Of a DNA stretch of 64,000 bases, positions 430-56,851 are shown piece by piece. The stretch is taken from the NCBI GenBank assembly GCA_963847705.1, contig CAWKBC010000030.1, positions 96,001 through 160,000 on the forward strand. The letters run 5' to 3'. Source of the DNA: an uncultured Pseudomonadota bacterium (GTDB taxonomy: Bacteria > Myxococcota_A > Polyangia > Fen-1088). Under the pieces are notes generated by a model. The model worked only from the letters and a program-made list of their open reading frames with translations. It did not search any database and had not been told where the DNA came from. The first letter of the stretch is position 1. Each line of letters opens with the position of its first letter. The position numbers and the translations under genes were made by a program.

Positions 430-524
430 CGAGGGTGATCTAGCACGGGGGCGACGGCGCTCGGGGGCACCGCACGGGCCGGAACTGTTGAACTTTGGGG
501 CCCGTTACCCCAAACTGCTTGTCC

Positions 525-2302: not shown

Positions 2303-4003
2303 AGACCGGATCAATTTAGGTCGCTGAGGGAAAAGCCTAAGCGTTTGGATCCCTTAGAAGAAAGGGGATCGACGCGGATCGCGGATTGTGATCAAACGGT
2401 TCCAGGAGGGAATCGATGGACACGATCTGGACGACCGAGACGACGCTGACGGGCCTGGAGGAGCGGATCGTCAAGCGGTGTGGAAAGCGGCGTGTCTTCG
2501 TGTTTCTGCGGGAGCTGCGGCACCGCATCTTCGACGAGGCCTTGCAGGCGAAGCTGGCCGCGGCTTACGCAGAGCTGGTGCGCGGAAAGGAGCGAATTCC
2601 GCCCGCTCAAGTGGCGATGGCACTCCTACTTCAGGCGGCGTTGGGCGTGCCCGATCACGAGGTCGTGGAGCTGACGGTCATGGACCGACGCTGGCAGATG
2701 GTGCTCGGATGCCTGGGTGCCGAGGAGCCCCTGTTTTCTCAGGGAACGCTCTTCAATTTCCGGCAGCGAATGATCGCCAAGGGCCTCGACCAGGAGCTGT
2801 TCGACAAAACGGTGGCTCTGGCGCGCGAAACCGGCGGTTTCAGTGCGACGCATCTACGAGCGGCGTTCGATGCGAGCCCGCTGTGGGGCGCTGGGCGAGT
2901 GGAGGACACCTTCAATCTCATCGGTCGTGCTGCGATGCACGTCGTTCGCACGGCCGCCGAGCGACTGGGGCGACCATTCGCCGAGGTCGCCGCCGAAGCA
3001 GGAATCCCGGTGGTGGCCGCGACAAGCATCAAGACCGGGCTGGACATCGACTGGGACGACCCGGACGCCAGGAAAATGGGCCTGACGAAGCTCCTGGCGC
3101 AGGTGCAGTCGCTGGAACGCTGGCTTGATCGGGAGCTCAAGGAGCAGCTGAAACAGCCACCGTTGAAGGAGCAGTGGACACTCGTACAGAAGCTGATTGC
3201 TCAAGACACGGAGCCAGATCCGGAAGGTGGGGGAGGACGAAGAATCACCGACGGCGTCGCCAAGGACAGGCGCATCAGCGTCAGCGACGCGGACATGCGC
3301 CACGGCCGCAAGAGCAAGCGGAAGCGCATCGACGGCTACAAGCGGCACATCGCCCTCGACGTCGACACACCCGGCTTGATCTGCGGCGTAGCCGTCACAC
3401 CAGCTAACCAGCCAGAGCGAACCGCGAGCGCGACGCTCCTCGCCGACTTGGACCGGCAGAGATTGAAGCTCAGCGAGCTCTTCATCGACCGCGGATACCT
3501 CGGCGACGAATCAATCGAAGAGCGGCGACAGGAAGGGCTGCAGGTGCACTGCAAGCCTTTCCCGCAGCGAAACGGTGACCTCTTCGACAAGGGTGATTTT
3601 CAGATCGATCTCGTCGAGAAGACCATCCGCTGCCCGGAGGGCATCATCGTGCCGCTACGCCTTGGCACCAACGCCCATTTTCCGGCCGCCAAGTGCGACC
3701 CCTGCTCCAAGCGCGACGCCTGCACTCGCGCCAAACCCGGCAGAGGCCGCAGTCTCAGCATTCACCCAAACGAGCCCTTCATGCTCGATCTCAGGAGCAA
3801 GGCCAAGTCCCCCGAAGGCCGCGCCAACCTCAGAACTCGAGTGAAGGTCGAGCACGGCCTCGCAACCATCCACTCACGCCAGGGCGACAAGGCCCGCTAC
3901 CGTGGCCTTCGAAAAAACCTCTTCGACGTCCGCCGGCACGCCGCCGTCGAAAACCTCTTCGTGATCGATCGCTTACAGCTGGCCGCCTAATTTGGTCGGC
4001 TCT
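2303..4003 (+). mobile_element. Insertion sequence (IS1182/IS5-like), 1701 bp, apparently complete
   Basis: Imperfect 18-bp terminal IRs (AGACCGGATCAATTTAGG 2303-2320 vs the reverse complement of 3986-4003, AGAGCCGACCAAATTAGG; 14/18 identical), flanked by CTAG at 2299-2302 and 4004-4007. Confidence 0.88.
2416..3990 (+). CDS. DDE transposase, IS1182-like
   Basis: DUF772-like N-terminus (DRRWQMVLGCL..FSQGTLFNFRQR), AFDAS, DADMRHGRKSK..GYKRH, FIDRGY, Cys-rich insert, RVKVEH. Confidence 0.9.
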   Translation: MDTIWTTETTLTGLEERIVKRCGKRRVFVFLRELRHRIFDEALQAKLAAAYAELVRGKERIPPAQVAMALLLQAALGVPDHEVVELTVMDRRWQMVLGCLGAEEPLFSQGTLFNFRQRMIAKGLDQELFDKTVALARETGGFSATHLRAAFDASPLWGAGRVEDTFNLIGRAAMHVVRTAAERLGRPFAEVAAEAGIPVVAATSIKTGLDIDWDDPDARKMGLTKLLAQVQSLERWLDRELKEQLKQPPLKEQWTLVQKLIAQDTEPDPEGGGGRRITDGVAKDRRISVSDADMRHGRKSKRKRIDGYKRHIALDVDTPGLICGVAVTPANQPERTASATLLADLDRQRLKLSELFIDRGYLGDESIEERRQEGLQVHCKPFPQRNGDLFDKGDFQIDLVEKTIRCPEGIIVPLRLGTNAHFPAAKCDPCSKRDACTRAKPGRGRSLSIHPNEPFMLDLRSKAKSPEGRANLRTRVKVEHGLATIHSRQGDKARYRGLRKNLFDVRRHAAVENLFVIDRLQLAA

Positions 4004-4050
4004 CTAGCTCGCCCGGAGGTCGACCACGGCGGTCGACCACGGATGGTTGA

Positions 4051-4599
4051 CTACGGGGGGAGCAAGCCGGCCGGAATGTCGGCCAGCAGCGGGTTCTCGC
4101 GATCCCGGTCCGAGACGATGGGATTCTCGACGCCCCAGGAGATCCCGAGCGTCGGATCGTCCCAGCGCACCCCGCGCTCGTCGCTGTTGTCGTAGAGCTC
4201 GTCGACCAGGTAGGTCATGAACGAGTCGACCAGGGCGCAGAAACCGTGGGCGACACCCTTGGGGATGTAGAGGCCGAACCGGGAGTCCGTGCCCAGCTCG
4301 ATCACCTCGCTCGCACCGCGGGTCGGTGAGGAGACCCGCATGTCGTAGAGCGCGGCGCGGACCCGACCCGACGGAACAATCCAAAAATCGGCCTGCTTGA
4401 GGTGATAGTGCAGGCCCCGCAGGACGGTGGCCTTGGAGAACGACACGTTTCCCTGCACCATGTCGCGCACGCCCGGGACCCACTGCCGCCGGTAGCTCTC
4501 GAAGAAGTAGCCGCGGCTGTCCTGGAAGGACTTCAGCGCCACGATGTAGACGCCTTTGATGCGGTCAGATTCGCGCGACGGCGTCGTGGTCGAGGACAT
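4051..4599 (-). CDS. rmlC: dTDP-4-dehydrorhamnose 3,5-epimerase
   Basis: FQDSRGYFFESY, VLRGLHY, DMRVSSPT, LYIPKGVAHGF, WDDPTLGISW, SDRD. Confidence 0.95.
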   Translation of the reverse strand: MSSTTTPSRESDRIKGVYIVALKSFQDSRGYFFESYRRQWVPGVRDMVQGNVSFSKATVLRGLHYHLKQADFWIVPSGRVRAALYDMRVSSPTRGASEVIELGTDSRFGLYIPKGVAHGFCALVDSFMTYLVDELYDNSDERGVRWDDPTLGISWGVENPIVSDRDRENPLLADIPAGLLPP

Positions 4600-4604
4600 G
4601 ATGG

Positions 4605-5483
4605 CTACTCTAGCCGCATCTCTTCGGCCGCGAAAGCCCGGAGGGCCTCTTGCCAGGTCGACAGGGTGTCGAAACCGGTCTCACGGAGCATCCGGTTGTC
4701 GAGGATCGCGCGCCGGGGCCGGGGGGCCTTCATCGGCAGGGAGGCGGTCGGCACCCCCTCGACCTTTGTCGCCGGAAGACCGAGGATCTCGGCGGCGAAG
4801 CTGGCGAAGGCCGCCCAGGTCGTCTCGCCGTGCGAGGTGCAGTGGTAAAGGCCGTAGTGGTCGGTCGCCGCCAGTGCGGCCGAGACCCGGGCGACCTCCC
4901 GGACCCAGGTCGGCGAGCCGAGCCGCTCGCGGTCGGCGCGAACGGTTTCGCCCTTTCTCAGGCGGCGCACGATGGTCGAGGGAAAGTTTCGGCCGCTCCG
5001 TCCGTACAGGCACCCGACCCGCAGAATGAAGTGCCGCGCCGCCGCGTCCGCCACCGCCGCGTCGCCGGCCACCTTCGAGCGGGCGTAGCTCCCCTGGGGC
5101 GTGGGCGGATCCTTTTCGTCGTAAGGGCGGGCCTGCTCGCCGTCGAAGACGAAGTCGGTCGAGTAGTGGACCACGGCGGCGCCTGCGGCTGCGGACGCGC
5201 GCGCGACCGCGCGGGCCCCCGCCTCGTTCACGGCAAACGCGACCTCCGGTTCGAGCTCCGCCCGATCGACGTCCGTGTAGGCGGCCGCGTTGAAGACGGC
5301 CGTGGGCCGCGTCTCGGCGAACAGCGCCCGCAGGGCCGCCTCGTCCCGAATGTCGCACTCGCTGCGGGCGACGGCGGCGGCGACCGACCAACCGGCCAGC
5401 GGCAGTTGCTCACAGAGCGCCAGCCCCAGCGTCCCTCTCGCCCCCAGCACGATCGCTCTTCGTTCGTCGGCCATGTTGTTCAC
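4605..5483 (-). CDS. rmlD: dTDP-4-dehydrorhamnose reductase
   Basis: GARGTLG, NAAAYTDVDRAE, HYSTDFVFDG, YARSK, GSPT, APRP. GTGA overlap with the upstream gene; alternative ATG 5474. Confidence 0.95.
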   Translation of the reverse strand: MNNMADERRAIVLGARGTLGLALCEQLPLAGWSVAAAVARSECDIRDEAALRALFAETRPTAVFNAAAYTDVDRAELEPEVAFAVNEAGARAVARASAAAGAAVVHYSTDFVFDGEQARPYDEKDPPTPQGSYARSKVAGDAAVADAAARHFILRVGCLYGRSGRNFPSTIVRRLRKGETVRADRERLGSPTWVREVARVSAALAATDHYGLYHCTSHGETTWAAFASFAAEILGLPATKVEGVPTASLPMKAPRPRRAILDNRMLRETGFDTLSTWQEALRAFAAEEMRLE

Positions 5484-6115
5484 CTCGATCTGGTTCCGAT
5501 GCGAGCGGGACGCGCCGTCACCACCAGGCGCTTGTTGAGCTTCAGCAGGTTGGGCCGCCCCGCCCGATACGACATGTCCATGAACGACTGCATGATGTGC
5601 AGCCCCATGCCGGACTCGGGCAGCGCCTCGATGGCCGGGGGCTGCACCCGCGACGGATCGAACCCTGGTCCCCAGTCACGAAGCTCGATCTGGATGCGAC
5701 CGGGGCTCGTCTTGATTCGCAGATCGACCTCGGCGTCGCCGCTGCGGCGCGGGGCGCTCCCGACGTTCCCGTGCAGGACGATGTTGTTGAATCCCTCGCC
5801 GACGGCGGAGAGCACCTGATGGCGAAACTCGTCCCAGGCCGCGCCGCGCGGGCGCTCGGTCACCATTTTGCACGCCGTGGCCACCGCGCGAAGCGCAACG
5901 TCACGGTGCTCGAGGATGCCCCGAAGCTTCAGCCGCACCGTGCTCGGCGGAGAGACCGAGGCCCGCGTCCGAGAGGCGGCGGTCGTCGGGCTCCGTCGAA
6001 CCTTTCGGCGTTTGGGTGGGCTCAATGTGACTTTAGCTAACTCAAATCCAGAGTTCCGCGCCACCTCAAACTGGCGGCCGCCGCGGGACAGAAAGTAGTA
6101 AATCGATTTCCACAA
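5480..6115 (-). CDS. RsbW/SpoIIAB-like anti-sigma factor or Ser kinase (GHKL ATPase fold)
   Basis: AVGEGFNNIVLHG (N box), IELRDWGPGFDP (G1), LPESGMGLHIM (G2). The true start is probably downstream of 6115. Confidence 0.8.
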   Translation of the reverse strand: MWKSIYYFLSRGGRQFEVARNSGFELAKVTLSPPKRRKVRRSPTTAASRTRASVSPPSTVRLKLRGILEHRDVALRAVATACKMVTERPRGAAWDEFRHQVLSAVGEGFNNIVLHGNVGSAPRRSGDAEVDLRIKTSPGRIQIELRDWGPGFDPSRVQPPAIEALPESGMGLHIMQSFMDMSYRAGRPNLLKLNKRLVVTARPARIGTRSR

Positions 6116-6297
6116 AGGATACGCGTAGGTAGACCCCCTACCTCTCCCGCCGCCCCGCGCCTGGCGGGCGAATTCGGGACCGGTCGGGCGGGGGGAGCCA
6201 CCTCGTCCGAACCGCGACGGCGACCTGGGGCACGTTCGTCCAATTCCCGAGCGTCGAGAAAGCCGATCTCTTAATATCCGGGTGGCTCGGGTCCAAC

Positions 6298-7689
6298 TTG
6301 CTTCGCCAACACGAAAACGTCGTCCACCGCATTCAGCGCCTGGCCGACATCCTGTGGGTCGTCGTCGCGCACATCGCGACCACCTTCGCCTATCGTCAGA
6401 CCTGGCGGAGCGAGTCGAGCAACGCGACGCTGGCGGCGGTGGTGGTCTTCATCGTCGCCGCGGAGCTGTGCAGCGTCTACCGCCCCTGGCGGGTCGAGCG
6501 GTTCCACGTCGAGCTGAGGATGGTCACCCTGGCCTGGCTGGGGACCGTGGCCACCCTGATGACCTTCGCGTTCGCCACGAAGACCTCCCTGGCGTACTCG
6601 CGGGTGGTGATCTTCGGTTGGTTCGTGCTGACGCCGGTGATTCTCTGTGGTTGGCGGATCGTGGTGCGGCTGGCGCTGCGGACGATGCGGCAGCAAGGGC
6701 GCAACATCCGCAACGTGGTGATCCTTGGCGCGACCGCCAACGCACGTGCGCTCTGCAAGGAGATCGCAGAGCGGCCCTGGTTCGGCCTGCGCGTCATGGG
6801 CGTCTACGACGACCGCAGCCCCGATCGGCGCGAAGACCTGAGTGACGTTTCCTGCGCCTTCGCCGGCAGCTCGAACGATCTGCTGGAGGTCTGCCGTTCC
6901 AACAAGGTCGACTCGGTCTACATCGCCTTGCCGATGCGGGCCGAGCCGCGCATCGCGCAGCTGCTCCAGGATCTCTCGAACACCACCGCGACGGTCTATC
7001 TGGTGGCCGACTTCTTCATGTTCAACCTGCTGAGCGCGCACTGGAGCACGATCGGCGAGATCGCGATCGTCAGCGCCCACGACACGCCCTTCAAGGGCGT
7101 GGACGGGGTCCTCAAGCGCTTCGAGGACATCGTGGTCGGCAGCATGATCCTCCTGGTCATCGCCATCCCGATGCTGCTCATCGCGATCGGCATCAAGCTG
7201 ACCTCGCCCGGGCCGGTCCTCTTTCGCCAGCGCCGCTACGGCCTGAACGGCAAGGAGATCCGTATCCTCAAGTTCAGGAGCATGACGGTCCTGGAGGACG
7301 GGCCCCAGGTCGTGCAGGCCAAACGCGGCGACGCCCGGATCACCAAGTTTGGTGCGTTCCTGCGCCGGACCTCCATGGATGAGCTCCCTCAGTTCCTGCA
7401 GGTGATCACCGGGAAGATCTCGATCGTCGGCCCGCGACCGCATGCGGTCGCGCACAACGAGACCTACCGCGCGCTGATCCGCGGCTACATGCTGCGCCAC
7501 AAGGTCAAGCCCGGCATCACCGGCTGGGCGCAGGTGAATGGATGGCGCGGCGAGACCCCGGACGTCTCCTGGATGGAGAAGAGAGTGAAGTACGATCTGC
7601 AATACATCCAGCGCTGGACGCTGCTGTGGGACTTGAAGATCATCTTGCTGACCATCTTCGGACGCAAGAAGAGCAACAACGCGTTCTAG
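6298..7689 (+). CDS. wcaJ: Undecaprenyl-phosphate glucose phosphotransferase (WcaJ-like priming enzyme)
   Basis: Four N-terminal TMs, CoA-binding-like middle domain, KRFEDI, FRQRRYG, KFRSM, LRRTSMDELPQF, VGPRP, KPGITGWAQVNG. Confidence 0.93.
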   Translation: MLRQHENVVHRIQRLADILWVVVAHIATTFAYRQTWRSESSNATLAAVVVFIVAAELCSVYRPWRVERFHVELRMVTLAWLGTVATLMTFAFATKTSLAYSRVVIFGWFVLTPVILCGWRIVVRLALRTMRQQGRNIRNVVILGATANARALCKEIAERPWFGLRVMGVYDDRSPDRREDLSDVSCAFAGSSNDLLEVCRSNKVDSVYIALPMRAEPRIAQLLQDLSNTTATVYLVADFFMFNLLSAHWSTIGEIAIVSAHDTPFKGVDGVLKRFEDIVVGSMILLVIAIPMLLIAIGIKLTSPGPVLFRQRRYGLNGKEIRILKFRSMTVLEDGPQVVQAKRGDARITKFGAFLRRTSMDELPQFLQVITGKISIVGPRPHAVAHNETYRALIRGYMLRHKVKPGITGWAQVNGWRGETPDVSWMEKRVKYDLQYIQRWTLLWDLKIILLTIFGRKKSNNAF

Positions 7690-7694
7690 CCGTC

Positions 7695-9065
7695 TCACTC
7701 TTTCGGCAAGCCCGGCCGCGGAATCGGTCGGGTGGTCGCGGTGAGGGAGAGGTAGGCCCAGATCTGGCGCTGATCAAACCGAAAGTTGGGCGTGTCCAGC
7801 GTCGGTCCCCGATTTGCCCACAAGCCTCCCAGCTCGGCGTAGAAGTTCTCCGTCACCCGTCGGCGAACCCGCAGGGAGAAGGAAAAGGCGGTCTCGTCGG
7901 GAGGGGTTTGAGTGGGGAGGACCGACACGTCCTCGAGGACGGTGGCGAAGTCTCCCCGCAGGGTGACCGTCCAGCTTGGAACTGACACGGCGGTCAGCTC
8001 GGCGGCCACCGAGCCACGTGGCAGGGCATTTCCGACGACGGGGTCGAGGAAGTAATCGACCCCCGCGAAGGCCCGGCCCAGGAACACGATCTCGTCCCGT
8101 CGCGCGAGGTGCAAGATCAGCTCGGCGGATCCAATCGGCGACACGGATTGCGTCTTCCCCTCGGGAAGCAACGGCTGGGCCTCGGGCGGCGGAGAACCAA
8201 CCAGGTGGAGGTAGGTCAAGCCGAGCCGCAGGTTGAGATCGGCGCCCCTGTCGAGGCGCCTCTTCCAGGTGCCATTCGGAGTCACACTGAGGGCTCCGGC
8301 GTCATACGAGTACTCGGCGAATCCGACGGCCGTGCCCAACCCCAGCGCGTCACGCGCAGTCAGGAGAAACGAGGCCGCAGGTTCGCCGCTCACCCACGTC
8401 TGGCTGGTGACGGTCCCGGGGGGGACGACCCCGATGTCCAACCACTGCCAGTGCGAGACCAGCCCGGCGAAGCTCACCCCCCAGCGCTGGGTGAGCTTGT
8501 CCACGACCTTGGCCTGTCCGCTCACGGATGCCAAATCGACGACCTTTGGCAGCGTCGGCTGGTCGCTCCCCAACACTTGAGGCAGGGCCGTGTAATCAGG
8601 TTCGCCGATCGAGCCGACGGCAGCGGCCGTCACCGTGACGCTTCGCGATGTCCGGGCGTCGAGGGTGAGCGCGAACGTGTGCAAGATGAGCGGTTCGGAC
8701 ACCGAGGACGGATTGGTTGGCTGGCCGGCCTGAGCAGGAGCTTGCTCCAACTCCGAGGAGGGATTGGGATACTCCCAAAAGATCCGAGGCGAGTACCAGG
8801 CCGAGAAGATGATCCCGGGATTGCGAAGCTCGAGAGCCAGGCGCGGGATCAGGATCTCCGCCACGAACGAGCGGGGGTCGCTTCCGGGCACGAGCGGAGC
8901 TTCTCCAGCTCGCGACTCGCTGGAGACACTTGCTTGCAGAGCGAGGATTCCAGGGACGAAACCGAGCCCCGCCGGCGAGTCCTGGGCACCGGCCTCGCCG
9001 GCGAGGCTGGCCTGGGCGCCCAGATCTCCCGACAGGAGGCAGAACGCAACCAGCGCCGCGCCCAC
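7695..9065 (-). CDS. Probable outer-membrane beta-barrel of the polysaccharide export system (EpsX/Wzp-like)
   Basis: Signal peptide, then alternating hydrophobic beta-strand patterns; last gene of the co-polymerase/OPX operon. Confidence 0.6.
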   Translation of the reverse strand: MGAALVAFCLLSGDLGAQASLAGEAGAQDSPAGLGFVPGILALQASVSSESRAGEAPLVPGSDPRSFVAEILIPRLALELRNPGIIFSAWYSPRIFWEYPNPSSELEQAPAQAGQPTNPSSVSEPLILHTFALTLDARTSRSVTVTAAAVGSIGEPDYTALPQVLGSDQPTLPKVVDLASVSGQAKVVDKLTQRWGVSFAGLVSHWQWLDIGVVPPGTVTSQTWVSGEPAASFLLTARDALGLGTAVGFAEYSYDAGALSVTPNGTWKRRLDRGADLNLRLGLTYLHLVGSPPPEAQPLLPEGKTQSVSPIGSAELILHLARRDEIVFLGRAFAGVDYFLDPVVGNALPRGSVAAELTAVSVPSWTVTLRGDFATVLEDVSVLPTQTPPDETAFSFSLRVRRRVTENFYAELGGLWANRGPTLDTPNFRFDQRQIWAYLSLTATTRPIPRPGLPKE

Positions 9066-9074
9066 GGATGGTGC

Positions 9075-9683
9075 CTATTCTACGACCACGACGTCTCCGT
9101 CCTGCAGACGGAAACCTATCGCGTGCGGCTCGGCGGCCGTCAGATCGGCGGCGCGGAAACGGATCCGTTGGACCGTCGTTCCCTCGGTCCGGATCACGAA
9201 GATCCGGTCCTTGTTGGCGAACTCGCTCAACCAACCCGCCGTCGCCAGCGCCGCCATCACCCCGCGGCTTCGCGTCAGCTCGTACGCGCCGGGGACCTTG
9301 ACCTCACCGACGACGTGCACCCGAACCGCTGCGATCTTGAGGATGGCAACCGTCACCTCCGGTTTCACCAGCACGCCGGTGAGGCTGGTTTCGAGCTCGG
9401 CAACCACCGTCCCGGTGGTCTTGCCACCGACGCTGACGGCCCCCACGGTCGGCTGGGGATAGTCGCCGCGATCGCCCACCAGGAACTCGCCCGAGAGCGC
9501 TGGCTGATTCTTCACGGTGACCAGAATCGTGTCGCGGGGCTCGATCGTCGAGCTGTCGGTCGGAGCGACCGGCAGATCTTGGACCCAGCGGAACGCGTGC
9601 TCCGTGACGCACCCGAGCGCCGCGGAGCCCAACGTCAAGGTGACGACCAACGCGATCCTGACGGCGGATCTCTCGCCCATCAA
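9075..9683 (-). CDS. Short OPX (Wza-family) polysaccharide export lipoprotein, Poly_export plus one SLBB domain
   Basis: Lipobox ALGC; IEPRDTILVTV..PTVGAVSVGGKT; VHVVGEVKVPGAY..ALATAGW..LQDGDVVVVE; no C-terminal OM helix. Confidence 0.9.
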   Translation of the reverse strand: MMGERSAVRIALVVTLTLGSAALGCVTEHAFRWVQDLPVAPTDSSTIEPRDTILVTVKNQPALSGEFLVGDRGDYPQPTVGAVSVGGKTTGTVVAELETSLTGVLVKPEVTVAILKIAAVRVHVVGEVKVPGAYELTRSRGVMAALATAGWLSEFANKDRIFVIRTEGTTVQRIRFRAADLTAAEPHAIGFRLQDGDVVVVE

Positions 9684-11611
9684 AACTTTCGACCGACCGG
9701 GCGCTTGCGACGGGTCCGGGCCCCGGGGACGAAAATGGCCTCAGCAGCCAAGGTCTTGGCGATGATCCGCTCGGCCTCCCGGCCTGCAATTCCCAGGGCA
9801 GCGGCCAGGATTCCCAGAAAGAGGCCCAGTCCCCCTCGCATGGCGAGGGTGCTCCTGTTGCGCGAGCGCTCCAAACGGATGGGCGAGACATCGAAGCGGG
9901 ACTCTGCAGAGACCTTCTCGAGGTTCAGCTGAATCTCGGCCTGCTTGAGCTTCGCAAACAGATCGGTGTGAAACTGCATCGTCGCTTCTTGCCGGTGGTC
10001 CAGGTCTGACAGGTGTTGCTCGACCCGCGGCAGGTCGCGCACCACCCGCTGAACCTGGCCCAGGTTCTTCTCGACGTCAGAAAGGTTGGCGCGCGTCGCG
10101 GCGACCTGGGTCCGCAGCTTCTCTGCGTTCGAGCGCGCCAGCTGATAGTTGGGGTCGGACTCGCGACTCAAGGGGGAGGTCGGTGATTGAAGCTCGTCCT
10201 TGATCAGCGTCTCCAGGCGTTGCTTTTGGTCCTTGAGAGCCAGGACTTCCGGATGACCTTCCCCGAGCCCGCGGCCGTAGGCCTCGGTCAGCTTGCGATT
10301 CACCTCGGTCAGCGACTGCCGGTAAGACTCCGAATACTGAAACTTCCGCTGGGCTTCGGGTCTATTGGTCTTCAGCTGATCCTCCGCCGCCGCCAGCTCG
10401 CCCTCGAGTTGGTGAAGCTGAGACGACAGCTCGGTCCGGCGGGTCTCCAGATCGAATCGGCTGGAGTGCGTCTGCTGAGAGTCTTCCGGGAGCCGATCCG
10501 CGTTCTCTTCTCGATAGCTCGCCCTCTCGTTGCTGACCCGGTCGACGTCGCCTTCCACCGTCTTCAACTGGTCGCGAAGGAAGTCCGCCTTGGCGCTGAG
10601 CTCCCGGACCGACCGCGCGATCTCTGCCTGCACGTAGTCCCTGATGTGGAGCGCCAGGAACTCCTGGGGCGAAGGCTGCGCCGAGGCCCTGTCTTTGTAC
10701 GTGACCCGGAACGTGTGATCGCCGATCTCATCCACCTTGAAGCGGCTGGCCATCGAGGTGACGTGGGCATCCGTCAGATCCTGGACGTTGAGCTTCTTGA
10801 GGGTGGTTCGAAGCAGATCGGCCTGGGTCATGGCGCGCTCTGCACCCTTCGCAAACAGGGTCGAGTCGCGCTCACTGTTCTGCCACGGGTCCTCGTTCGG
10901 GCTGGCGGAGAGCGTCATGTGCGGCATCAGCTTGACCTCGGACACCGCAGCGACGCCCGGAGGAACCACGAAGAGCGACATGATTCCCAGCAGGGCGCCG
11001 GCGAGAGCGAAAGCGCCTATGAAGAGGCTGCGTTCGCGGACGAAATGGTAGGCGGCGACCGCCTTGCGCAGCATGTCGGCCAGCGACGGACCGTCCGCAT
11101 CATCCTCTCCCCGCTCGCGAGGGCGAACGGGCTCGCCCGCCAGAGGGGGGACGATGGTCGGGACCAGCATCGCGCCCTTCATGGGGGCTCGCATGATCCG
11201 ATCGGGGAGCCGAACGGTCGCGCTGGTCGGTCGATCGAGGAGAAACATGAACTCGACGTTCCCGACCGTCACCTGGTCACCGTTGCGCAGCTGCGATCGA
11301 GAGGTGCGCTTTCCAGCGACGAAGGTCCCGTTCGTGGAGTCCAGGTCGACGATCTCGAAGCCCTGGCTGTTCTGCATGATCCGGGCGTGGTGCGAAGAGA
11401 CGGAAGCATCGGCGATGCTCACCTCCGCCTCGTCCGCCCTTCCCAGCAGCACGGAGCTGGTCTTGATCGCGTAGATCCGTTGCGGGTGCTCGCCCACGAA
11501 GAGCACCACGTACGCCAGCGCCTTCTCGGAGCGGACCGCCTGTCCCAACTCGGAATCGAGACCACCGCCCATCCCCGGCTCGCTGCTATCTGACGCCCTC
11601 TCCCCGGCCAT
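9680..11611 (-). CDS. Polysaccharide co-polymerase (Wzc/GumC-like) with an N-terminal FHA domain and no BY-kinase domain
   Basis: FHA (LLGR..SVSSHHA..DLDSTNGTFV..LRNGDQVTVG), TM1, long periplasmic coiled coil (NADRLPE, LGEGHPEV), TM2, short basic tail. ATG 11611 preferred over 11653. Confidence 0.88.
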   Translation of the reverse strand: MAGERASDSSEPGMGGGLDSELGQAVRSEKALAYVVLFVGEHPQRIYAIKTSSVLLGRADEAEVSIADASVSSHHARIMQNSQGFEIVDLDSTNGTFVAGKRTSRSQLRNGDQVTVGNVEFMFLLDRPTSATVRLPDRIMRAPMKGAMLVPTIVPPLAGEPVRPRERGEDDADGPSLADMLRKAVAAYHFVRERSLFIGAFALAGALLGIMSLFVVPPGVAAVSEVKLMPHMTLSASPNEDPWQNSERDSTLFAKGAERAMTQADLLRTTLKKLNVQDLTDAHVTSMASRFKVDEIGDHTFRVTYKDRASAQPSPQEFLALHIRDYVQAEIARSVRELSAKADFLRDQLKTVEGDVDRVSNERASYREENADRLPEDSQQTHSSRFDLETRRTELSSQLHQLEGELAAAEDQLKTNRPEAQRKFQYSESYRQSLTEVNRKLTEAYGRGLGEGHPEVLALKDQKQRLETLIKDELQSPTSPLSRESDPNYQLARSNAEKLRTQVAATRANLSDVEKNLGQVQRVVRDLPRVEQHLSDLDHRQEATMQFHTDLFAKLKQAEIQLNLEKVSAESRFDVSPIRLERSRNRSTLAMRGGLGLFLGILAAALGIAGREAERIIAKTLAAEAIFVPGARTRRKRPVGRKF

Positions 11612-11709
11612 TGTTTGGACAACCGCGTTCCAGTGAAGGACGAGTTTTAGCACATCCGCCGGCCGATCTCAAAGGCACCACGCCGCGTCAGGCGGGCGTG
11701 CAGGGCGGG

Positions 11710-13275
11710 TCAGCCGCCCGGCGTCGACGATACGGCATGCCGGTGAGATGCCTTCACCGCGTGCCGAGCGATCCCGACGGTGAGCAGCGCCGCAAGAACT
11801 CCCAGCGCCACCGACAGCGAGATGATGAGCGTTCGGCGCCTGTCGAATCGGCTCGTCGGCTCCGAGCTGATGCTGCGCCCGGGGATGACCATCGTCTGGG
11901 CGAAATTCTTTCCGCTGGGCGTCGGCTGGGGCTCCGGCACCGACAGAGGCATCGCGACCGTGGGTGGCAACCCCGTGGCGGCCTGCTGCGCCAGGTCCAC
12001 ACGGCGTCGAACGACCTCGTCTGTCCCCGAGAGCTCGCGGCGGACAAACGCCCCCACCGCCGTCGATGGCGCGATCAGGTCGTTGTTGAATCCGACCTTG
12101 AGGAGGGCCTGGGCCATCTCTTCGGCGCTGGCGTAGCGACCTTCTCGGGGACGACTGAGCGCCCGCAGACAGATCTCGTCGAAACAGGCCGGGGCCCCGT
12201 GGACGCTGGGAGGCGTGATCTCCTTGCGCAAGACGTTCGCGATGATCTGTTCGTAGCTGTCGGCCGAAAACAGCGCCTGGCCGGTGAGCGCCGTCCACAT
12301 CACCACACCGACGGCGAAGATGTCGGTGCGGGCGTCCAGCGGTTCCACGTACAGCTGCTCGGGGGCCATGAAGGCGGGTTTGCCGAGGTTCGTGGGATCG
12401 GCCTGCCCGGTCTCCCCGAGCGCGGTGAAGCGGGCGCTGCCGAAATCCGTCAGTCGGGCCACCCCGTCCGTCCCGACCAGGATGTTGGGCGGGGAGACGT
12501 CGCCGTGGACGAGCCCGAGCCACTTCCCCTCCTCGTCCGAGAGCTCGTGGGCGCTCTGGAGGCCGCGCAGCAGATCGAGGAGCACGCTCACCAGGATGTC
12601 CGGCGGGACGGGGCGGCCGAATGAGAGCTCCTCCAGGTTGGTCCCCTCGACGAACTGCAGCACGAGGTAGGGCTGGTTCTTGTAGGTGCCCACGTCGACC
12701 ACCGATTGGGTGTTGGGGTGATCGAGCCAGCTTCCCACCTGAACTTCCCGGATGAAGGATCTCTCGGCCGCCTGCTCCTGCCCCGAGTCCTGACGGACGA
12801 CCTTGATGGCAAACAGGCGCCGAAAGCCCACCGCGCCGGTGCGGCGCCCCGCGTACACCGACCCCATTCCCCCCTGGCCGAGCCGCGCCGAGACCTCATA
12901 GGGTCCGAGCTGGAAGAGAGCCTCTGCGCCCTTGCCACGGATGGTGACTTCCTTTGCCTCGACCGGAACCAACACCCGACGGCTGCAGAGCCTCCGCAGG
13001 GATCGGATCGTCGCCTCTTCCGAGAGGCCAGAGAGTCCCGCCAGGCGGGCGACCGATAATCGGCCATCGACCAGGCCCAGCAGGAGGCGCTCCTCGGCCC
13101 GGAGGCTCGGCAAGACGACGGATCCACCCGCCACGGCGAGCCCGGACGACAACTCACGCTCGCCGTCCGCGGTCGGCCGGTCCGCCCTGGCAATGACCCG
13201 CTGAGAGACCGTGAGGACCGTGGTGCGCCGGAGAACCGGACCACCTGGGTCGTCTTCTCTCACTGGTTGCGGCAC
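11710..13275 (-). CDS. Membrane-anchored Hanks-type Ser/Thr protein kinase with an N-terminal wHTH-like domain
   Basis: LGQGGMGSVY, FAIK, VHGDVSPPNIL, DFG, FMAPEQ, TDIFAVG; C-terminal TM with a tail of about 20 aa. Confidence 0.93.
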   Translation of the reverse strand: MPQPVREDDPGGPVLRRTTVLTVSQRVIARADRPTADGERELSSGLAVAGGSVVLPSLRAEERLLLGLVDGRLSVARLAGLSGLSEEATIRSLRRLCSRRVLVPVEAKEVTIRGKGAEALFQLGPYEVSARLGQGGMGSVYAGRRTGAVGFRRLFAIKVVRQDSGQEQAAERSFIREVQVGSWLDHPNTQSVVDVGTYKNQPYLVLQFVEGTNLEELSFGRPVPPDILVSVLLDLLRGLQSAHELSDEEGKWLGLVHGDVSPPNILVGTDGVARLTDFGSARFTALGETGQADPTNLGKPAFMAPEQLYVEPLDARTDIFAVGVVMWTALTGQALFSADSYEQIIANVLRKEITPPSVHGAPACFDEICLRALSRPREGRYASAEEMAQALLKVGFNNDLIAPSTAVGAFVRRELSGTDEVVRRRVDLAQQAATGLPPTVAMPLSVPEPQPTPSGKNFAQTMVIPGRSISSEPTSRFDRRRTLIISLSVALGVLAALLTVGIARHAVKASHRHAVSSTPGG

Positions 13276-13417
13276 TCCGTAGCCCCCCCTCTTCGCCGGA
13301 GCGATCGAATGTCTTGCTCAGCGGCTTCTATCATATGTTATGAAATCCTGCGACAGCGAGACAAACCCAGACCGTTACGTTTCATCCCCGAGAGCTCGAC
13401 TTTTCGAAAGTGGCGCA

Positions 13418-14437
13418 ATGATTGACGTGGCAACGATCGTCGTGAACTACCGCACCCCAGCGGCGACGATCGACGCGGTCGCGGCGCTCGGCAAGGACCT
13501 CGACCGGCTGGAGAATCCGCTGGTGGTCGTGGTCGACAACGACTCCGGCGACGGTTCTGCAGAGCTGCTCGAAAAGGCGTTTTCCGAAACGAAATGGGCT
13601 GGTCGCGTGGTTGTCGTTCCCTCCGGGCACAATGGTGGATTTGGAAGCGGCGTCAACGTAGGCGTTCAACATGTTCTGAAATCGTTCGGCGCAGCTCGCT
13701 ATTTTTACATTCTAAATCCAGATGCAACGATCGATCCGGGTGCCCTCAACGCGCTTGTTTCATTCATGGCCGATCACCCCGACGCCGGGCTGGTGGGAAA
13801 CCTGGTGCGCAACACGGAGGGCGCGGGCGAGATCAGAGCCTTCCGGTTCCCTTCGATCTGGGGCGACCTGGAGGCAAGCGCAAACCTCGGTCTGCTCTCC
13901 CGGCTGCTTCACAACCACCGGGTGTCCATCAACCCCAGCGCCTCCTGCGAGGTGGATTGGGTGTCCGGTGTCAGCATGTTGTTCCGAGGCGAAGTGTTTT
14001 CGACCGTGGGCTTCTTCGATGAAGCCTACTTTCTCTACTTCGAGGAGATCGACTTCGCCAAACGAACGCGACAGGCGGGCTGGAAGACGTATTTCGTCGC
14101 CGACGTCGGGGTCGACCACATCGGAGCGCTCTCCACCGGCCTGAAGGACGAGTCCCGGCCCATGCCCCGGTATTGGTTCGAGTCGCGTCGTCGATACTTC
14201 GTGAAACATCACGGGCGTTTCTACGCCGCCGCCTGTGATGCAGCCTGGCTCTTCGGGCACGCGATCCTCAGGCTCAAGGGGAGCTTGCCGCGCCACCGCG
14301 AGACCTTCCGGCCAAACATTGGTCGTGACTTTCTCCGCTTCAGTCTGGCCAATGTCTTCAAGCCGGCGCCTGAAGCAGAGCAGTCAAAGGGGAGGGGCCC
14401 GTCTCATCGCGCGGCCCCCGACCAGGTCTCCGGCTAA
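13418..14437 (+). CDS. GT2 glycosyltransferase (rhamnosyltransferase-like)
   Basis: IVVNYRT, VVVDNDSGD, NGGFGSGVN, LNPD, DWVSG, FDEAYFLYFEEIDF. Confidence 0.9.
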   Translation: MIDVATIVVNYRTPAATIDAVAALGKDLDRLENPLVVVVDNDSGDGSAELLEKAFSETKWAGRVVVVPSGHNGGFGSGVNVGVQHVLKSFGAARYFYILNPDATIDPGALNALVSFMADHPDAGLVGNLVRNTEGAGEIRAFRFPSIWGDLEASANLGLLSRLLHNHRVSINPSASCEVDWVSGVSMLFRGEVFSTVGFFDEAYFLYFEEIDFAKRTRQAGWKTYFVADVGVDHIGALSTGLKDESRPMPRYWFESRRRYFVKHHGRFYAAACDAAWLFGHAILRLKGSLPRHRETFRPNIGRDFLRFSLANVFKPAPEAEQSKGRGPSHRAAPDQVSG

Positions 14438-14453
14438 CCGGGCTGTTTCGAGG

Positions 14454-15476
14454 TCACCGGTCGGTCACCGTTCCGGTGGTGGCGGGTCCCTTGTATTCGA
14501 TCAGATTCGATTGGCGGCCGCCGACCCGGCGAATCCAGTAGAGCGCCTGTCCGAGCATCTGGGGGACCTTCCCGATCGTGCAGAAGAGAGCGTAAAGGGC
14601 CGAATCCCGAGGGGAGAGACCGCGCAACCGCGAGGAGCGATAGATGCGAGCGGCGAGAACCCCGTAGGCGGCGAGGAGACCAAGCCCGAGCCCGCCGGTC
14701 GGTACCGCCAGCCCCAGCGCGAGGCCGGGAAGGACCAGCCCCCAGAGCCAGTTGCTTCGGACCTCCCGCACCCAGTGGTGCTCGGGTTCATGCCCGTGAC
14801 GGGCGGCGCCTTCCGCGTAGGCGTGACCGGCCCGGACCCCGCGCTTCCACCATTGCCGGAATTGCGTCATCGCCACGTCGTGAAGCGTCATCCCGGCGTC
14901 GATCCGCCAGATCTTCCAACCGAGACGCCGCAACCGGAGGCAGAGATCCGGCTCCTCGCCCGCGATGAGCGAGGGATCGAAGCCGCCGACGGCGCGCAAC
15001 GCGTCGACCCGCATGAGCGCGTCGCCGCCGCACGCGCTCACCAACCCGAACGGGGAGACGTTCCACTCGAGATCGCACAGGCGGTTGTAGATCGATCGGT
15101 CGGGGTAGCGCTCTTGCCGCCGGCCGCAGACGACGCCGAAGTGGGCATCGGCTGCAAACTCGCGCTCGGCCCGCTCCAGCCACCCGGCGGCCACCTCGCA
15201 GTCACCATCCACGAACTGGACGAGCTCCAGCGTGGGAACGGCTTCCAGGAGGCTCGCCAGCCCGGCGTTTCGGGCGCGCGCCGCCGTGAAGGGCACCGCG
15301 CGATCGAGCTCGACCACCCCCACCCCCATCGCCCGGGCCAGCTCCACGCTGCCGTCGGTCGAGCCGGAGTCGACGTAGATGACCGCCGCCACCCGACCGA
15401 CCAGCGAGGAGAGGCAGGTCCGCAGCCGTTCGCCCTCGTTTCGCCCGATCGCGACGGCCCCGACCTGGGGAGTCAC
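14454..15476 (-). CDS. GT2 glycosyltransferase
   Basis: GTG 15476 overlaps the upstream stop; AIGRNEGERL, YVDSGSTDGS, ARARN, QFVDGD, IAGEEPDLC. Confidence 0.9.
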   Translation of the reverse strand: MTPQVGAVAIGRNEGERLRTCLSSLVGRVAAVIYVDSGSTDGSVELARAMGVGVVELDRAVPFTAARARNAGLASLLEAVPTLELVQFVDGDCEVAAGWLERAEREFAADAHFGVVCGRRQERYPDRSIYNRLCDLEWNVSPFGLVSACGGDALMRVDALRAVGGFDPSLIAGEEPDLCLRLRRLGWKIWRIDAGMTLHDVAMTQFRQWWKRGVRAGHAYAEGAARHGHEPEHHWVREVRSNWLWGLVLPGLALGLAVPTGGLGLGLLAAYGVLAARIYRSSRLRGLSPRDSALYALFCTIGKVPQMLGQALYWIRRVGGRQSNLIEYKGPATTGTVTDR

Positions 15477-16018
15477 GACGCCTTGTCCGCGGTCGTTCCG
15501 CCCCGCACCACCCGCGCCGGGACGCCCAGGGCCACCGCACCGGCCGGGATGTCGTCGCAAACCACGGCGTTCGCGCCGATCGTCGCCCCATCGCCGATGT
15601 GAACCGACCCCAGCACCTTGGCGCCCGCGCCGACCGACACCCGGCTCCCCAGGCGGGGGGCCTCGAGAGGTCGGTCGGAACGGCGGTTCCCCAGCGTGAC
15701 GTCTTGTCGGATGATGCAGTCGTCGCCGATCTCGGCGTGGCCGTGGATGACGATTCCGCTCTGGTGCTCGATGATGACCCGCCGACCGACGCGCGCCGTG
15801 TACGGCAGCTCGATCCCGTAGAGATTGCGAACGCTTCGGAAGAGCACGCGATAAAGTACACTGAGGGGCGCCCGGAGAACCTTGGGGCCGATCCCCATCC
15901 GCCAAGTGCCGAACCGATGGACAGCCAATGCCTGGAAACCGGGACGTGTGACGTCACGATCGTGCGCTTCCCAGTCCTCGACGATCTGGGTGATCAGGCT
16001 GAGTCCCATGAAATTCAC
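15473..16018 (-). CDS. CysE/WcaB-like left-handed beta-helix O-acetyltransferase
   Basis: YGIELP..IEHQSGIVIH..IGDD..QDVTLG..GAGAKVLG..IGANAVV..GVPAR. Confidence 0.88.
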   Translation of the reverse strand: MNFMGLSLITQIVEDWEAHDRDVTRPGFQALAVHRFGTWRMGIGPKVLRAPLSVLYRVLFRSVRNLYGIELPYTARVGRRVIIEHQSGIVIHGHAEIGDDCIIRQDVTLGNRRSDRPLEAPRLGSRVSVGAGAKVLGSVHIGDGATIGANAVVCDDIPAGAVALGVPARVVRGGTTADKAS

Positions 16019-16071
16019 ACCTCGTTTCTCCGTTCATAACATGGCTGGACCCGAAGCCTGATGGGCACATT

Positions 16072-17268
16072 TTGCTAGAGGCGTTCCTCTCCGCGCTGGG
16101 CGTGGCGCTGCTGTTGCCGGCTGTCGTGCTGCTCATGGAGACGGCGGCGGCCTTCCTGCCGGCGCGCCGCCGGATCCAGCACGATGCCACCGTCACTCCG
16201 CGCGTCGTCGTCCTCGTGCCTGCGCACAACGAAGCGGCGCAGATCGCGGAGACGGTGGGCGCGCTGGTCCAGGACCTGCCGGCTCAGGGGACCGTCCTCG
16301 TCGTCGCCGACAACTGCGCGGACGAGACCGCGGCCCTGGCGAGAGGCGCCGGGGCGACGGTCATCGAGCGCCAGGATCTGTCGCGCGTGGGCAAGGGATT
16401 CGCGATCTCGAAGGGGCTCGAGCATCTTGCCGAGTTGCCTCCCGACGTGGTGGTCATCTTCGACGCCGACTGCCGGATCTCGGAGGGCGGCGTCGCCACT
16501 CTCGCCCGGGCGGCGGCGCGATTCCGGCGACCGGTTCAGGCCGAGTATCTGCTGGGCGCTCCGGGGATCCAGGACCCGATGGTGGTGGTGAGCGCCATGG
16601 CCGTCCTGCTCCGCAACCGAATTCGGCCGCGCGGTTTGGACCGACTGGGGTTGCCCTGCACCCTCACGGGGAGCGGCATGGCCTTCACCTGGGACGTTTT
16701 GCGCGCGGCACCGGAGACGGGCGCCAACCTGGTCGAGGATCTGGTCATGGGGATCGACCTCGCGCTGCGGGGGCACCCGGCCAAGCTGTGCTCGGAGGTC
16801 AAGGTGAACAGCGTCCTGCCGTCGAGCGGCGCCGCCAGTGTGCGGCAACGGCGTCGCTGGGAGCACGGGCATCTTCACACCCTGATGACCTACGCGCCCC
16901 GGCTGCTGGTCGCCGGGATTGTGCGCCGGCGACTGTCACTCATCGCGCTGGGCCTGGACCTGATCATCCCGCCGCTCGCCCTTCTGGTCCTGCTTCAGAC
17001 GGTCCTGCTGGGGGTGACGCTCCTCTCTTACGCGCTGAAGGCGACCTCGCTGATCCCGGTGACCCTCGTCGCGGCGGGCCTCGGTCAGGTCGTTCTGGCG
17101 GTGGCGGCCGCCTGGATCGGGTTCGGCAGACAGACGATTCGTTTTCGCCAGCTCGCCTTGATGCCGCTCTATCTGGCCCGGAAAGCTCCTTTCTATCTGG
17201 CCTTGATCCTCCGGGGCCGGCAACGGAAATGGGAGCGCACCACCCGCAAGGGTGAGCCGCCGGGCTAA
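16072..17268 (+). CDS. Membrane GT2 glycosyltransferase
   Basis: VPAHNE, VADNCAD, GKG, DAD, LVED, QRRRW, C-terminal TMs. Confidence 0.9.
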   Translation: MLEAFLSALGVALLLPAVVLLMETAAAFLPARRRIQHDATVTPRVVVLVPAHNEAAQIAETVGALVQDLPAQGTVLVVADNCADETAALARGAGATVIERQDLSRVGKGFAISKGLEHLAELPPDVVVIFDADCRISEGGVATLARAAARFRRPVQAEYLLGAPGIQDPMVVVSAMAVLLRNRIRPRGLDRLGLPCTLTGSGMAFTWDVLRAAPETGANLVEDLVMGIDLALRGHPAKLCSEVKVNSVLPSSGAASVRQRRRWEHGHLHTLMTYAPRLLVAGIVRRRLSLIALGLDLIIPPLALLVLLQTVLLGVTLLSYALKATSLIPVTLVAAGLGQVVLAVAAAWIGFGRQTIRFRQLALMPLYLARKAPFYLALILRGRQRKWERTTRKGEPPG

Positions 17269-17367
17269 GGACGAGACTGGTACCGCTCGTCGCGCTCCCT
17301 CAGGTCCGCCGGACTCCTTTTGATAAGGGCGCTCCCTTCGGATATTCTCGCCACGGTTCAGGCGGAG

Positions 17368-18120
17368 ATGATCGAACGCATTCAGATCGGCCAGGTTCCG
17401 ATCGACAAGGTGGATCTGCCGGGGACGTTGGCGGCCATCGGCGCGATGATCGATTCCCGCACGGGGGGAATGATCTTCACGCCGAACGTCGACCACATCG
17501 TGCTGGCGGAGGACGACGAGCGCTTTCGGCGGGCCTACCAGCGGGTCAGCCTTTCGCTGGTCGATGGAACACCGGTGCTCTGGGCGGCGCGTCTCCTCGG
17601 CCAACCGCTGCCAGAAAAGGTCTCGGGTTCCGATCTCGTCATTCCTCTCATGGAGCGAGCGGCCGCCAAGGGCTGGCGCGTGTTTCTCCTCGGTGGTGAG
17701 CCTCGTTCCGGGGAGGTCGCGACGATGCGGCTCAAGGAACGATTTCCGGAGCTGAAGCTCGTGGGCACGGCCGGGCCCCGGATCGATCTCCAAAGCGAAG
17801 TTGGTGAGAGGCTGGCGGTCGCCAGGCAGGTCGCCGCGACGGCGCCGGACCTGGTGCTGGTGGCGTTCGGCGCTCCCAAGCAGGAGATTTTCTGCGACGA
17901 AGCGCTCGATGTCCTCAAGCCTGCCGTCCTGGTCTGCGTCGGCGCGGGGATCGACTTCATCTCCGGCGTGGCGCGCCGGGCTCCGGCCTGGATGTCGCGT
18001 TGCGGAATCGAATGGCTGTACCGATTGGCCCACGAGCCGCGCCGGCTCGCCGGCCGCTACCTCCTGCGCGATCCGAAATTCATCCCAATCCTGCTGCGTC
18101 AGATGCGCGAGCGTCGGTAA
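17368..18120 (+). CDS. WecB/TagA/CpsF family glycosyltransferase (GT26)
   Basis: TPNVDH, DGTPV, KVSGSDL, GAPKQE, RAPAWM..EWLYRL..EPRRL..RY. Confidence 0.93.
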   Translation: MIERIQIGQVPIDKVDLPGTLAAIGAMIDSRTGGMIFTPNVDHIVLAEDDERFRRAYQRVSLSLVDGTPVLWAARLLGQPLPEKVSGSDLVIPLMERAAAKGWRVFLLGGEPRSGEVATMRLKERFPELKLVGTAGPRIDLQSEVGERLAVARQVAATAPDLVLVAFGAPKQEIFCDEALDVLKPAVLVCVGAGIDFISGVARRAPAWMSRCGIEWLYRLAHEPRRLAGRYLLRDPKFIPILLRQMRERR

Positions 18121-18193
18121 CGTGGGCGATGTCCGGGAAGCATCGTCATCGAGATTCGCTCGGGCATCGGATATCATCGGCTAGAAACAGGTC

Positions 18194-19393: not shown

Positions 19394-19473
19394 CGCCAGC
19401 CCCACCACGAGTTGCTGGACGCAGGCATCCGATGCAACATGCGGGCTCGATGACCGTGCTCCGATGAGGCGAG

Positions 19474-20784: not shown

Positions 20785-20840
20785 CGCCGGACGGGTCCAG
20801 GACGCCGGACGGGGTCAGACCAGGCGGGTCGAGCGTTGTG

Positions 20841-21650: not shown

Positions 21651-21718
21651 GGCTCAACAAATAGCACGGATCTCGGCGATCTGCACCCGCTCGGGCGCGT
21701 CGCTGCGTGCGCTGCCGG

Positions 21719-22915: not shown

Positions 22916-23002
22916 GAATGGACGGTACCATCTCGACGCACCTCGAGGTAGTCGGGACGGTCGTTCGGCCGCCGCTCTGGGCGCTGTCGGCGTCTGATCG
23001 GG

Positions 23003-24373: not shown

Positions 24374-24606
24374 GGGCGCGTCTCGAACCTGATCGCCGTC
24401 CTGACGACATCGCGCAGGGGCAAGCGAAAGTTCAGGAGCGAACGGCAGCTCGGGATGAGATAGCTGCCACGGAAGGTCAAGTTCATCTGGTGTTGCGAGT
24501 CAGTGCGAGCATCACTATAGCTGGCGGCGCGCCAGATAGGAAGCGCGGTGGCAGCGAGCCGGCGATCTGCCGTCGCTGTCCGGGAGACGCCACCACCGCT
24601 CGAGAA

Positions 24607-26031: not shown

Positions 26032-26169
26032 CGAACTAGCCTCCCGCCGCCTCGTCGACTGGCCCGTCCGACGAGCGGAGCAGCAGGATCGCGGGTCCGG
26101 TGCGCGTCGGAGCTTCGTCGCGGGCGTTTGACCGAACGCCCCGGCGCAGGATGTCCGGCGACCGTCGGT

Positions 26170-33419: not shown

Positions 33420-33460
33420 GACCAGACCCCACCTCTACCGAAAACTCCTACCCCCCGACC

Positions 33461-56846: not shown

Positions 56847-56851
56847 GGAGC

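Follow-up and report, generated by a model that had tools for sequence, protein, structure and literature searches.

The 64,000-nucleotide stretch analysed here (the window; positions 96,001 to 160,000 of contig CAWKBC010000030.1, from an uncultured bacterium of the Polyangia) carries an exopolysaccharide (EPS) export unit in which a polysaccharide co-polymerase is fused to an FHA domain and is encoded next to a Hanks-type Ser/Thr kinase. On balance, this is probably a Wzx/Wzy-type export unit with a co-polymerase that has no tyrosine kinase and would be under the control of a dedicated Ser/Thr kinase, acting through contacts between phosphothreonine (pThr) and the FHA domain. The unit adds a new form of regulation to the composite pathway of myxobacteria, in which an outer-membrane polysaccharide export (OPX) protein is paired with a β-barrel; it is real and conserved, and it was not found in print. 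The kinase–FHA pair is likely to be an undescribed, putative switch for polysaccharide secretion in several myxobacterial families.

The export unit is made up of four open reading frames (ORFs), all on the minus strand, between positions 7695 and 13275. The non-RD Hanks Ser/Thr kinase (11710..13275, 521 aa; Pfam Pkinase E 3e-32) is followed by the FHA-fused co-polymerase (9680..11653, 657 aa counted from the first GTG, although homologues favour the ATG at 11611 as the start), a short D1D2-type OPX lipoprotein (9075..9683, 202 aa) and a predicted EpsX-like outer-membrane β-barrel (7695..9065, 456 aa). The coordinates leave 56 bases between the kinase and the co-polymerase, a 4-base overlap between the co-polymerase and the OPX, and 9 bases between the OPX and the barrel, which bears out the initial annotation in its description of four co-oriented genes with the last three tightly coupled. 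Its naming of the four products also held, on the Pfam and TIGR03007 matches, the fold match and the barrel model given below. A promoter scan returned no sites.

The kinase is intact and membrane-anchored, and is predicted to be an active Hanks Ser/Thr kinase. It has a small N-terminal helix-turn-helix (HTH)-like domain, the catalytic domain and one transmembrane (TM) helix (residues 484–502), with no periplasmic sensor. All of the motifs are present (Gly loop, beta3 Lys, alphaC Glu, HxD..N, DFG and xPE), the catalytic residues being K158, E177, H257-G-D259 (HGD, non-RD), N264 and D277FG, and the K, E, H, D, N, DFG and PE are invariant in 26 orthologues. The locus kinases from family f1, to which the window belongs, and from families f11 and f2 fall together in a single clade, whose 57 rows are all non-RD (FastTree support 93); outside this clade 33 of 34 tree rows have HRD. 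The f11 orthologues lie within open frames of about 1,000–1,400 aa (as at L298:3731-7108; letter-and-number labels are those of this analysis), and the one that was scanned has an N-terminal DUF4388 domain.

The FHA domain of the co-polymerase spans residues 69–131 (11261..11449, minus strand; Pfam FHA E 1.5e-16), with Mb1858, GarA and the FHA of Rv1747 as its best PDB sequence matches. Its pocket residues R72, S86, H89 and N108 are invariant in 42 homologues, and Arg, Ser, His and Asn make up what we take to be the residue set of a pThr-binding FHA domain; the domain is predicted to be a phosphothreonine reader. After a linker modelled with low confidence, two TM helices (212–230 and 604–622) flank a long helical periplasmic domain, and the second is followed by a basic, Arg-rich tail of about 35 residues with no tyrosine kinase domain of the bacterial type (BY-kinase).

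There is no match between the co-polymerase and Pfam Wzz/GNVR, and hhalign against the Wzc-like protein of the same genome is weak (probability 21%), so that the identity of this protein rests on TIGR03007 (E 1e-18, below its cut-off), on its Atlas neighbours (Wzz/GumC clusters, 0.97) and on its fold. The best structural alignments of the model (pLDDT 75) are to KpsE (Z 13.5, root-mean-square deviation 6.1, 241 residues), with Wzc at Z 13.1 (7.5, 318 residues), a Z of about 13 being only moderate for helical proteins. The fold was assigned because entries for polysaccharide co-polymerases (PCP) fill the top 13 rows, 12 of them titled Wzc or KpsE, and because both TM ends align. A large helical domain in the periplasm, flanked by two TM helices and with the PCP fold, is expected of the class, and the protein has it. 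The alignment to Wzc stops at Wzc residue 451–453, just before its tyrosine kinase, and the fused C-terminal BY-kinase of the PCP-2a (Wzc) type, with Walker motifs and Tyr tail, is not present.

The OPX has a lipobox, A-L-G-C25, that can be read from the sequence. It matches Pfam Poly_export and one SLBB, as for a short OPX lipoprotein made up of just D1 and D2, and its best NCBIfam match is EpsY (E 4e-34, below cut-off). The adjacent barrel ORF has no Pfam match. Its predicted model (pLDDT 83.5) has 18 long strands by our count, which would make it an 18-stranded outer-membrane barrel next to the OPX; its Foldseek matches are all outer-membrane barrels, the top one being 4y25, its Atlas label is BBP2_2, and hhalign gives 98% probability to a protein that itself matches EpsX at 6e-21.

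No P-loop or phosphatase family was found among the 68 window ORFs scanned with Pfam, and none of the 367 six-frame ORFs of positions 1–40000 has a BY-kinase Walker A, a low-molecular-weight tyrosine phosphatase motif or a phmmer match to the BY-kinase of the same genome. The earlier statement that the EPS locus encodes neither a BY-kinase nor a tyrosine phosphatase is thereby confirmed. The genome itself (85% complete) has four TIGR01007 matches, of which the only one above cut-off is on contig C23, in another locus, directly behind its own Wzz/GNVR domain. This second polysaccharide locus (G000 contig C23, L139:12934-15139) has a Wzc-like gene with a frameshift between the co-polymerase and BY-kinase parts, likely to be an assembly error because the orthologues in L391 and L392 are also frameshifted. 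In five other genomes carrying the FHA co-polymerase, all four BY-kinases over the cut-off adjoin a Wzz-like domain of their own, and G068 (79% complete) has no BY-kinase over the cut-off. The carrier genome G481 has a 292-aa open frame (L401) with a weak BY-kinase match (88.6 bits) that is possibly stand-alone.

Around the homologues, 103 stretches were compared, their ORFs filtered by guanine-plus-cytosine content at the codon positions. Four of these ORFs have a Walker A pattern and none has a Tyr tail. No P-loop or phosphatase family was found among the 26 Pfam-scanned representatives of the 65 recurring clusters. A stand-alone BY-kinase beside the co-polymerase, as in the PCP-2b (CapA/CapB) type, was not seen in the window or in the 103 stretches.

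The Walker A, BY-kinase and AAA_31 model screens can miss an EcpK-like pseudokinase without Walker motifs. It is conceivable, if improbable, that such an unlinked BY pseudokinase carries out assembly by binding to the C-terminal tail, as in Myxococcus xanthus, with the kinase and FHA domain as an added input. EcpK has neither Walker motifs nor a Tyr tail, is not linked to epsV and binds a 25-residue tail bearing Arg (PMC12004946), and the Arg-rich tail of the window co-polymerase would be a comparable target. But the tail is just 12–15 residues or so in f11, and 15 ORFs have in its place a short connection to an OPX in the same frame. The co-polymerase has no match, at E 0.01, to the EpsV model (NF041864), which a control protein matches at 2e-72, and no P-loop-like family recurs in the 103 stretches. 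No EpsY locus of the M. xanthus type was found over the cut-off in 251 genomes of the phylum.

The relatives are labelled Polyangia or Myxococcales and are all metagenome-assembled. The co-polymerase body is present in 44 of the 89 genomes of f1 and, in a sample of 401 genomes of the class, in f11 (31/71), f65 (2/2) and f2 (1/33), so that the FHA-co-polymerase family totals 78 genomes in four families. Homologues with E < 1e-30 form 173 clusters at 50% identity; of the best 150 clusters, 105 have the FHA domain, 89 of these with an intact pocket, and one wider representative is labelled Nannocystaceae by NCBI. In 15 loci, all of the kinase-less branch, co-polymerase and OPX are in one open frame (L180, L181, L184-L187, L189-L191, L194, L196, L202, L203, L269, L270), and in 14 of the 15 joints another hydrophobic segment bearing a lipobox-like G-C can be seen.

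In a single genome the adjacency of kinase and FHA domain carries little weight, as there are 76 Hanks kinases, and 13% of random positions and 12 of 25 FHA ORFs lie within 5 kb of one. The linkage is above chance because it is conserved across genomes. Of the 78 genomes, 75 could be scored, G575, G423 and G611 being left out with the FHA beyond the contig end. Where the FHA pocket is intact, the kinase clade is present in 48 genomes and absent from 3, whereas in the genomes with a changed or lost FHA it is present in none and absent from 24, the presence column having been compiled by hand from several separate kinase screens. The kinase is on the same fetched stretch in 37 of the 48 and on another contig in 11. 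That FHA co-polymerase homologues are linked to kinases was one of the points on which the initial annotation had staked its proposal, and it withstood this comparison. The pairing is well supported by these genomes, in which one specific kinase and the FHA pocket are retained or lost jointly.

The absence of the kinase was judged in several ways. Twenty f1 genomes have the changed state, and in 10 of them all candidates were scored, the best reaching 237 bits against at least 284 for clade members, and the top kinases parsed there are HRD in 25 of 25 cases; in the four changed genomes outside f1, 77–150 candidates were scored. For G030, G032 and G036 absence was called by the single-sequence threshold only, which failed to pick up one true clade member. 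G081 was at one time taken to have an intact FHA without the kinase, which was rejected when the orthologue was found beside an OPX gene; the single-sequence threshold can therefore miss divergent members of the clade. Outside f1 the bit score by itself does not separate orthologues, with RD kinases scoring up to 304 bits, and assignment there relied on the tree together with the HxD residue.

The residues lost from the changed FHA domains differ by lineage: Asn is replaced by Glu, Arg by Ser together with Ser by Glu or Asp, or Ser by Ala, or there is a deletion. A single clade of all changed copies is rejected (p-AU 0.0003, approximately unbiased test, 36 of 82 rows). Two g252 genomes have changed second copies, and one of these genomes retains an intact copy as well as the kinase. 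Within f1, over 19 loci, the Spearman correlation with co-polymerase identity is highest for the kinase (0.885), followed by the OPX (0.80), the barrel (0.70) and WcaJ (0.52), although such tracking of identity is descriptive only because the pairs are not independent.

These data also bear on a quite improbable alternative, in which the kinase is a co-inherited passenger and the FHA domain reads pThr from any kinase of the cell, or is structural. The 76 kinases in the genome, the small number of independent losses, and the intact FHA without the kinase in G463 would be in keeping with this. Yet all 24 genomes without an intact FHA are also without this kinase, though dozens of other kinases remain in them, and the kinase is retained even when relocated outside the locus. 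In addition, of the 45 f1 genomes that have no match to the co-polymerase, 1 has this kinase, and there it is among EPS genes on a short contig.

Some kinases near polysaccharide genes have nothing to do with the pair. EpsY-like loci of f2 with nearby kinases were considered and set aside as unrelated, the kinases scoring 43–99 bits and the loci having no FHA co-polymerase. In two f2 genomes (L234:2441-6592, L237:13642-17669) a Hanks kinase gene of about 290 aa is directly before a membrane acyltransferase of 1,060–1,090 aa, near an OPX gene; these kinases are unrelated to the locus kinase clade.

Several observations weigh against a dedicated switch of this kind. At least 4 of the 11 kinases on other contigs are truly away from the locus, and three genomes have an intact FHA without the kinase (G026, 70% complete; G569, 71%; G463, 95%). 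The FHA state changes four times on the co-polymerase tree, which gives three independent pairs (sign test median p 0.5), and with only three pairs the test cannot reach significance. The changed genus g18 may join g11/g12/f65 (p-AU 0.16; 36 of 82 rows). The co-loss rests on two or three independent kinase-less lineages, a number too small for significance. When all 31 loci are taken together, the advantage of the kinase in tracking the co-polymerase is almost gone (kinase 0.86, OPX 0.82, barrel 0.84, WcaJ 0.82). A candidate Thr motif in the linker after the FHA domain, loosely defined, is present in 41 of 52 intact-FHA copies counted per genome and in 14 of 27 changed copies, and the recurring families scanned around the homologues include no phosphatase.

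If the kinase does switch the co-polymerase, the candidate sites suggest how it might do so. The kinase, in the same membrane as the co-polymerase, may autophosphorylate Thr461 (Q-T-M-V-I; 11893..11895, minus strand), a juxtamembrane residue and candidate FHA ligand. The phosphorylated T461 would bind the FHA domain of the co-polymerase, bringing the kinase to the export ring. The docked kinase might then phosphorylate linker Thr146 of the co-polymerase (A-T-V-R-L; 11216..11218, minus strand), a candidate second pThr site, with the phosphorylated T146 binding the FHA domain of the adjacent protomer. FHA domains have their C-terminal end opposite the pocket, and since T146 is close to that end it would bind a neighbour's FHA rather than its own. 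These pThr–FHA contacts could determine how the ring is assembled and thereby its coupling to Wzy and to the OPX/barrel channel, although the effect of the kinase–FHA pair on the ring is put forward as a hypothesis.

T461 (T341 of A5) is retained in at least 90% of 42 kinase orthologues, in a region that is otherwise variable. A strict [KRQ]-T-hydrophobic motif ahead of the TM helix is present in 22 of 49 clade kinases and in none of 46 TM-bearing paralogues from the window's own genome; a loose version is present in 47 of 49 and 13 of 46. The strict motif was derived from the clade kinases themselves, which tilts the comparison in their favour. T146 is invariant in 42 close homologues of the co-polymerase. 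FHA domains favour pThr together with a specific residue at +3, and T-x-x-hydrophobic is just behind the FHA domain in 66 of the 89 intact-FHA representatives, compared with 8 of 89 at a more distant position and with 12.6 expected by shuffling. The motif is absent from 11 of the 52 intact copies, so phosphorylation of the linker Thr would not be universal. The idea that the linker Thr is cleanly lost along with the kinase was dropped, since the loose window finds the motif in changed copies too.

That T461 is more universal than T146 would fit a simpler role for the FHA domain as a dock only, holding the autophosphorylated kinase at the export site to act on further proteins of the pathway, for example WcaJ or glycosyltransferases, with the ring not switched. 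WcaJ often adjoins the kinase and co-polymerase genes or sits between them, and Staphylococcus aureus PknB phosphorylates the priming transferase CapM, lowering capsule synthesis (PMC6441080). This alternative is unlikely, though it deserves consideration: the linker Thr is strongly placed after the FHA domain across the 89 divergent representatives (66, with 12.6 expected), and in f1 the correlation between WcaJ and the kinase is low (0.46). A switched ring is the reading retained here.

The 24 kinase-less genomes with a changed or lost FHA keep the co-polymerase and, where the contig reaches, mostly the OPX and barrel, with no BY-kinase nearby. This tells against the strict replacement of the Tyr cycle by pThr–FHA contacts that was originally proposed, while the architecture, the lack of a BY-kinase in the locus and the specific link between kinase and FHA domain are in its favour. 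Because the kinase-less lineages keep the export genes, the switch is likely to be an optional regulatory layer and not an obligatory stand-in for the Tyr cycle, and the co-polymerase family seems able to exist without any kinase cycle. A bolder interpretation is more tentative, being somewhat doubtful on these data: that this is a third co-polymerase cycle, in which a eukaryote-like Ser/Thr kinase writes pThr and the FHA domains of neighbouring protomers read it, phosphorylation builds the ring (with the opposite sign to Wzc) and the BY-kinase is fully replaced, the lineages that dropped the kinase being locked on, many of them via the OPX fusion.

The export unit is within an EPS locus of about 38 kb (495..38874), where Pfam identifies rmlB, a nucleotidyl transferase, rmlC, rmlD, glycosyltransferases of GT2, GT4 and WecG type, and acetyltransferases. 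An initiating phosphoglycosyl transferase of the WcaJ type (6298..7689, plus strand; TIGR03023 above cut-off) and a Wzx flippase (23003..24373, minus strand; PF13440 E 2e-51) are present along with the OPX, as for the PCP-2 systems of the Wzx/Wzy pathway. The likely Wzy polymerase (24607..26031, minus strand) has at least 6 TM segments and no Pfam or NCBIfam match; the cluster taken as its family recurs in 32 of the 103 stretches. A 545-aa multi-TM protein at 30318-31955 also has no Pfam or NCBIfam match. An ORF at 27432-28499 that appeared to be conserved in many loci was rejected, as it lies antisense to a GT2 gene.

Divergent from wcaJ is a gene for an RsbW-like (HATPase_c_2) kinase (5480-6115), which is also seen in L005, L009, L076, L080 and L179 and is possibly a second control input. 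The WcaJ, RsbW-like and rml genes (495-7689) are 90–96% identical to those of L009 and L080, whereas the co-polymerase is only 56–57% identical, which suggests that this block moves by recombination. A DDE transposase is within the rml cluster (2416-3990), and an integrase with an HTH antidote-like gene is at the right end of the locus (39783-42145). Beyond this are secreted-looking hydrolases and esterases (GH16, GH26, two fucosidases, GH43, GH53, GH5 and GDSL) together with AraC and ECF regulators (43859-63769).

Among the 103 stretches, 19 have a PilZ-domain protein (for example L289:15294-15992), a possible cyclic di-GMP input, and an AMP-binding family recurs in 14. In the kinase-less genus g18 (L212:720-5175) a 1,243-aa protein resembling a non-ribosomal peptide synthetase and a 238-aa protein, which to us reads like a phosphopantetheinyl transferase, are encoded between wcaJ and the co-polymerase.

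The control of polymer length and export by phosphorylation is an open question that has been studied almost solely in BY-kinase systems. Here nature supplies one scaffold in three states: paired with a Ser/Thr kinase while its FHA is intact, lacking the kinase while its FHA is changed, and fused to the OPX. These states let one ask whether a phosphorylation cycle is required for export or merely regulates it, with K158, T461, R72 or N108, and T146 as the residues named for mutation. If the proposed switch is real, one of the numerous orphan Hanks kinases in myxobacteria would gain a defined function.

No published description was found of FHA with a co-polymerase, chain length determinant, Wzz, Wzc or the Nannocystaceae, supplements and most subscription journals being outside the scope of this search. 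The term 'FHA' is absent from the main text of PMC12004946, PMC9601211, PMC9603273 and PMC7484181, and in the available sections of PMC12419801 the FHA fusion mentioned is to VanZ-1, not Wzz. The impression in the initial annotation that the architecture is undescribed can stand for the FHA co-polymerase with its Hanks kinase. It does not extend to the pair of a short OPX and an 18-stranded barrel, already described in Myxococcus (PMC9601211), or to a co-polymerase lacking a BY-kinase, for which EpsV with its unlinked pseudokinase EcpK is the precedent (PMC12004946).

The EpsV/EcpK/EpsY/EpsX system of M. xanthus is alike in its Wzx/Wzy-type locus, its co-polymerase without a BY-kinase, its short D1D2 OPX lipoprotein and its 18-stranded barrel (PMC9601211, PMC12004946). 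It differs from the window system, which has the N-terminal FHA domain and linker and the dedicated Hanks kinase, a co-polymerase outside the EpsV model, and no EcpK-like gene seen in its loci. Wzc/Wzb/Wza of Escherichia coli (PCP-2a) and CapA/CapB/CapC of S. aureus (PCP-2b) share the two-TM co-polymerase fold and a phosphorylation module at the cytoplasmic face (PMC12004946). Unlike these, the window locus lacks a P-loop tyrosine kinase, a Tyr tail and a tyrosine phosphatase; its module is a separate Hanks kinase and an N-terminal reader, and some lineages have no kinase at all. In S. aureus a Hanks kinase, PknB, also acts on a Wzy-type polysaccharide pathway, but PknB is global, adds its action on CapM and CapB1 to a BY-kinase cycle that is itself intact, and works without an FHA fusion (PMC6441080). 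A further parallel is in Mycobacterium tuberculosis, where PknF phosphorylates a linker Thr of Rv1747 beside its FHA domains (PMC8339232). There too an adjacent membrane Hanks kinase is paired with an FHA-bearing envelope exporter, and the candidate Thr is in a disordered linker by the FHA domain. While Rv1747 has two FHA domains on an ABC transporter (PMC8339232), the window protein has a single FHA domain joined to the PCP fold of a co-polymerase, and its partner kinase is non-RD.

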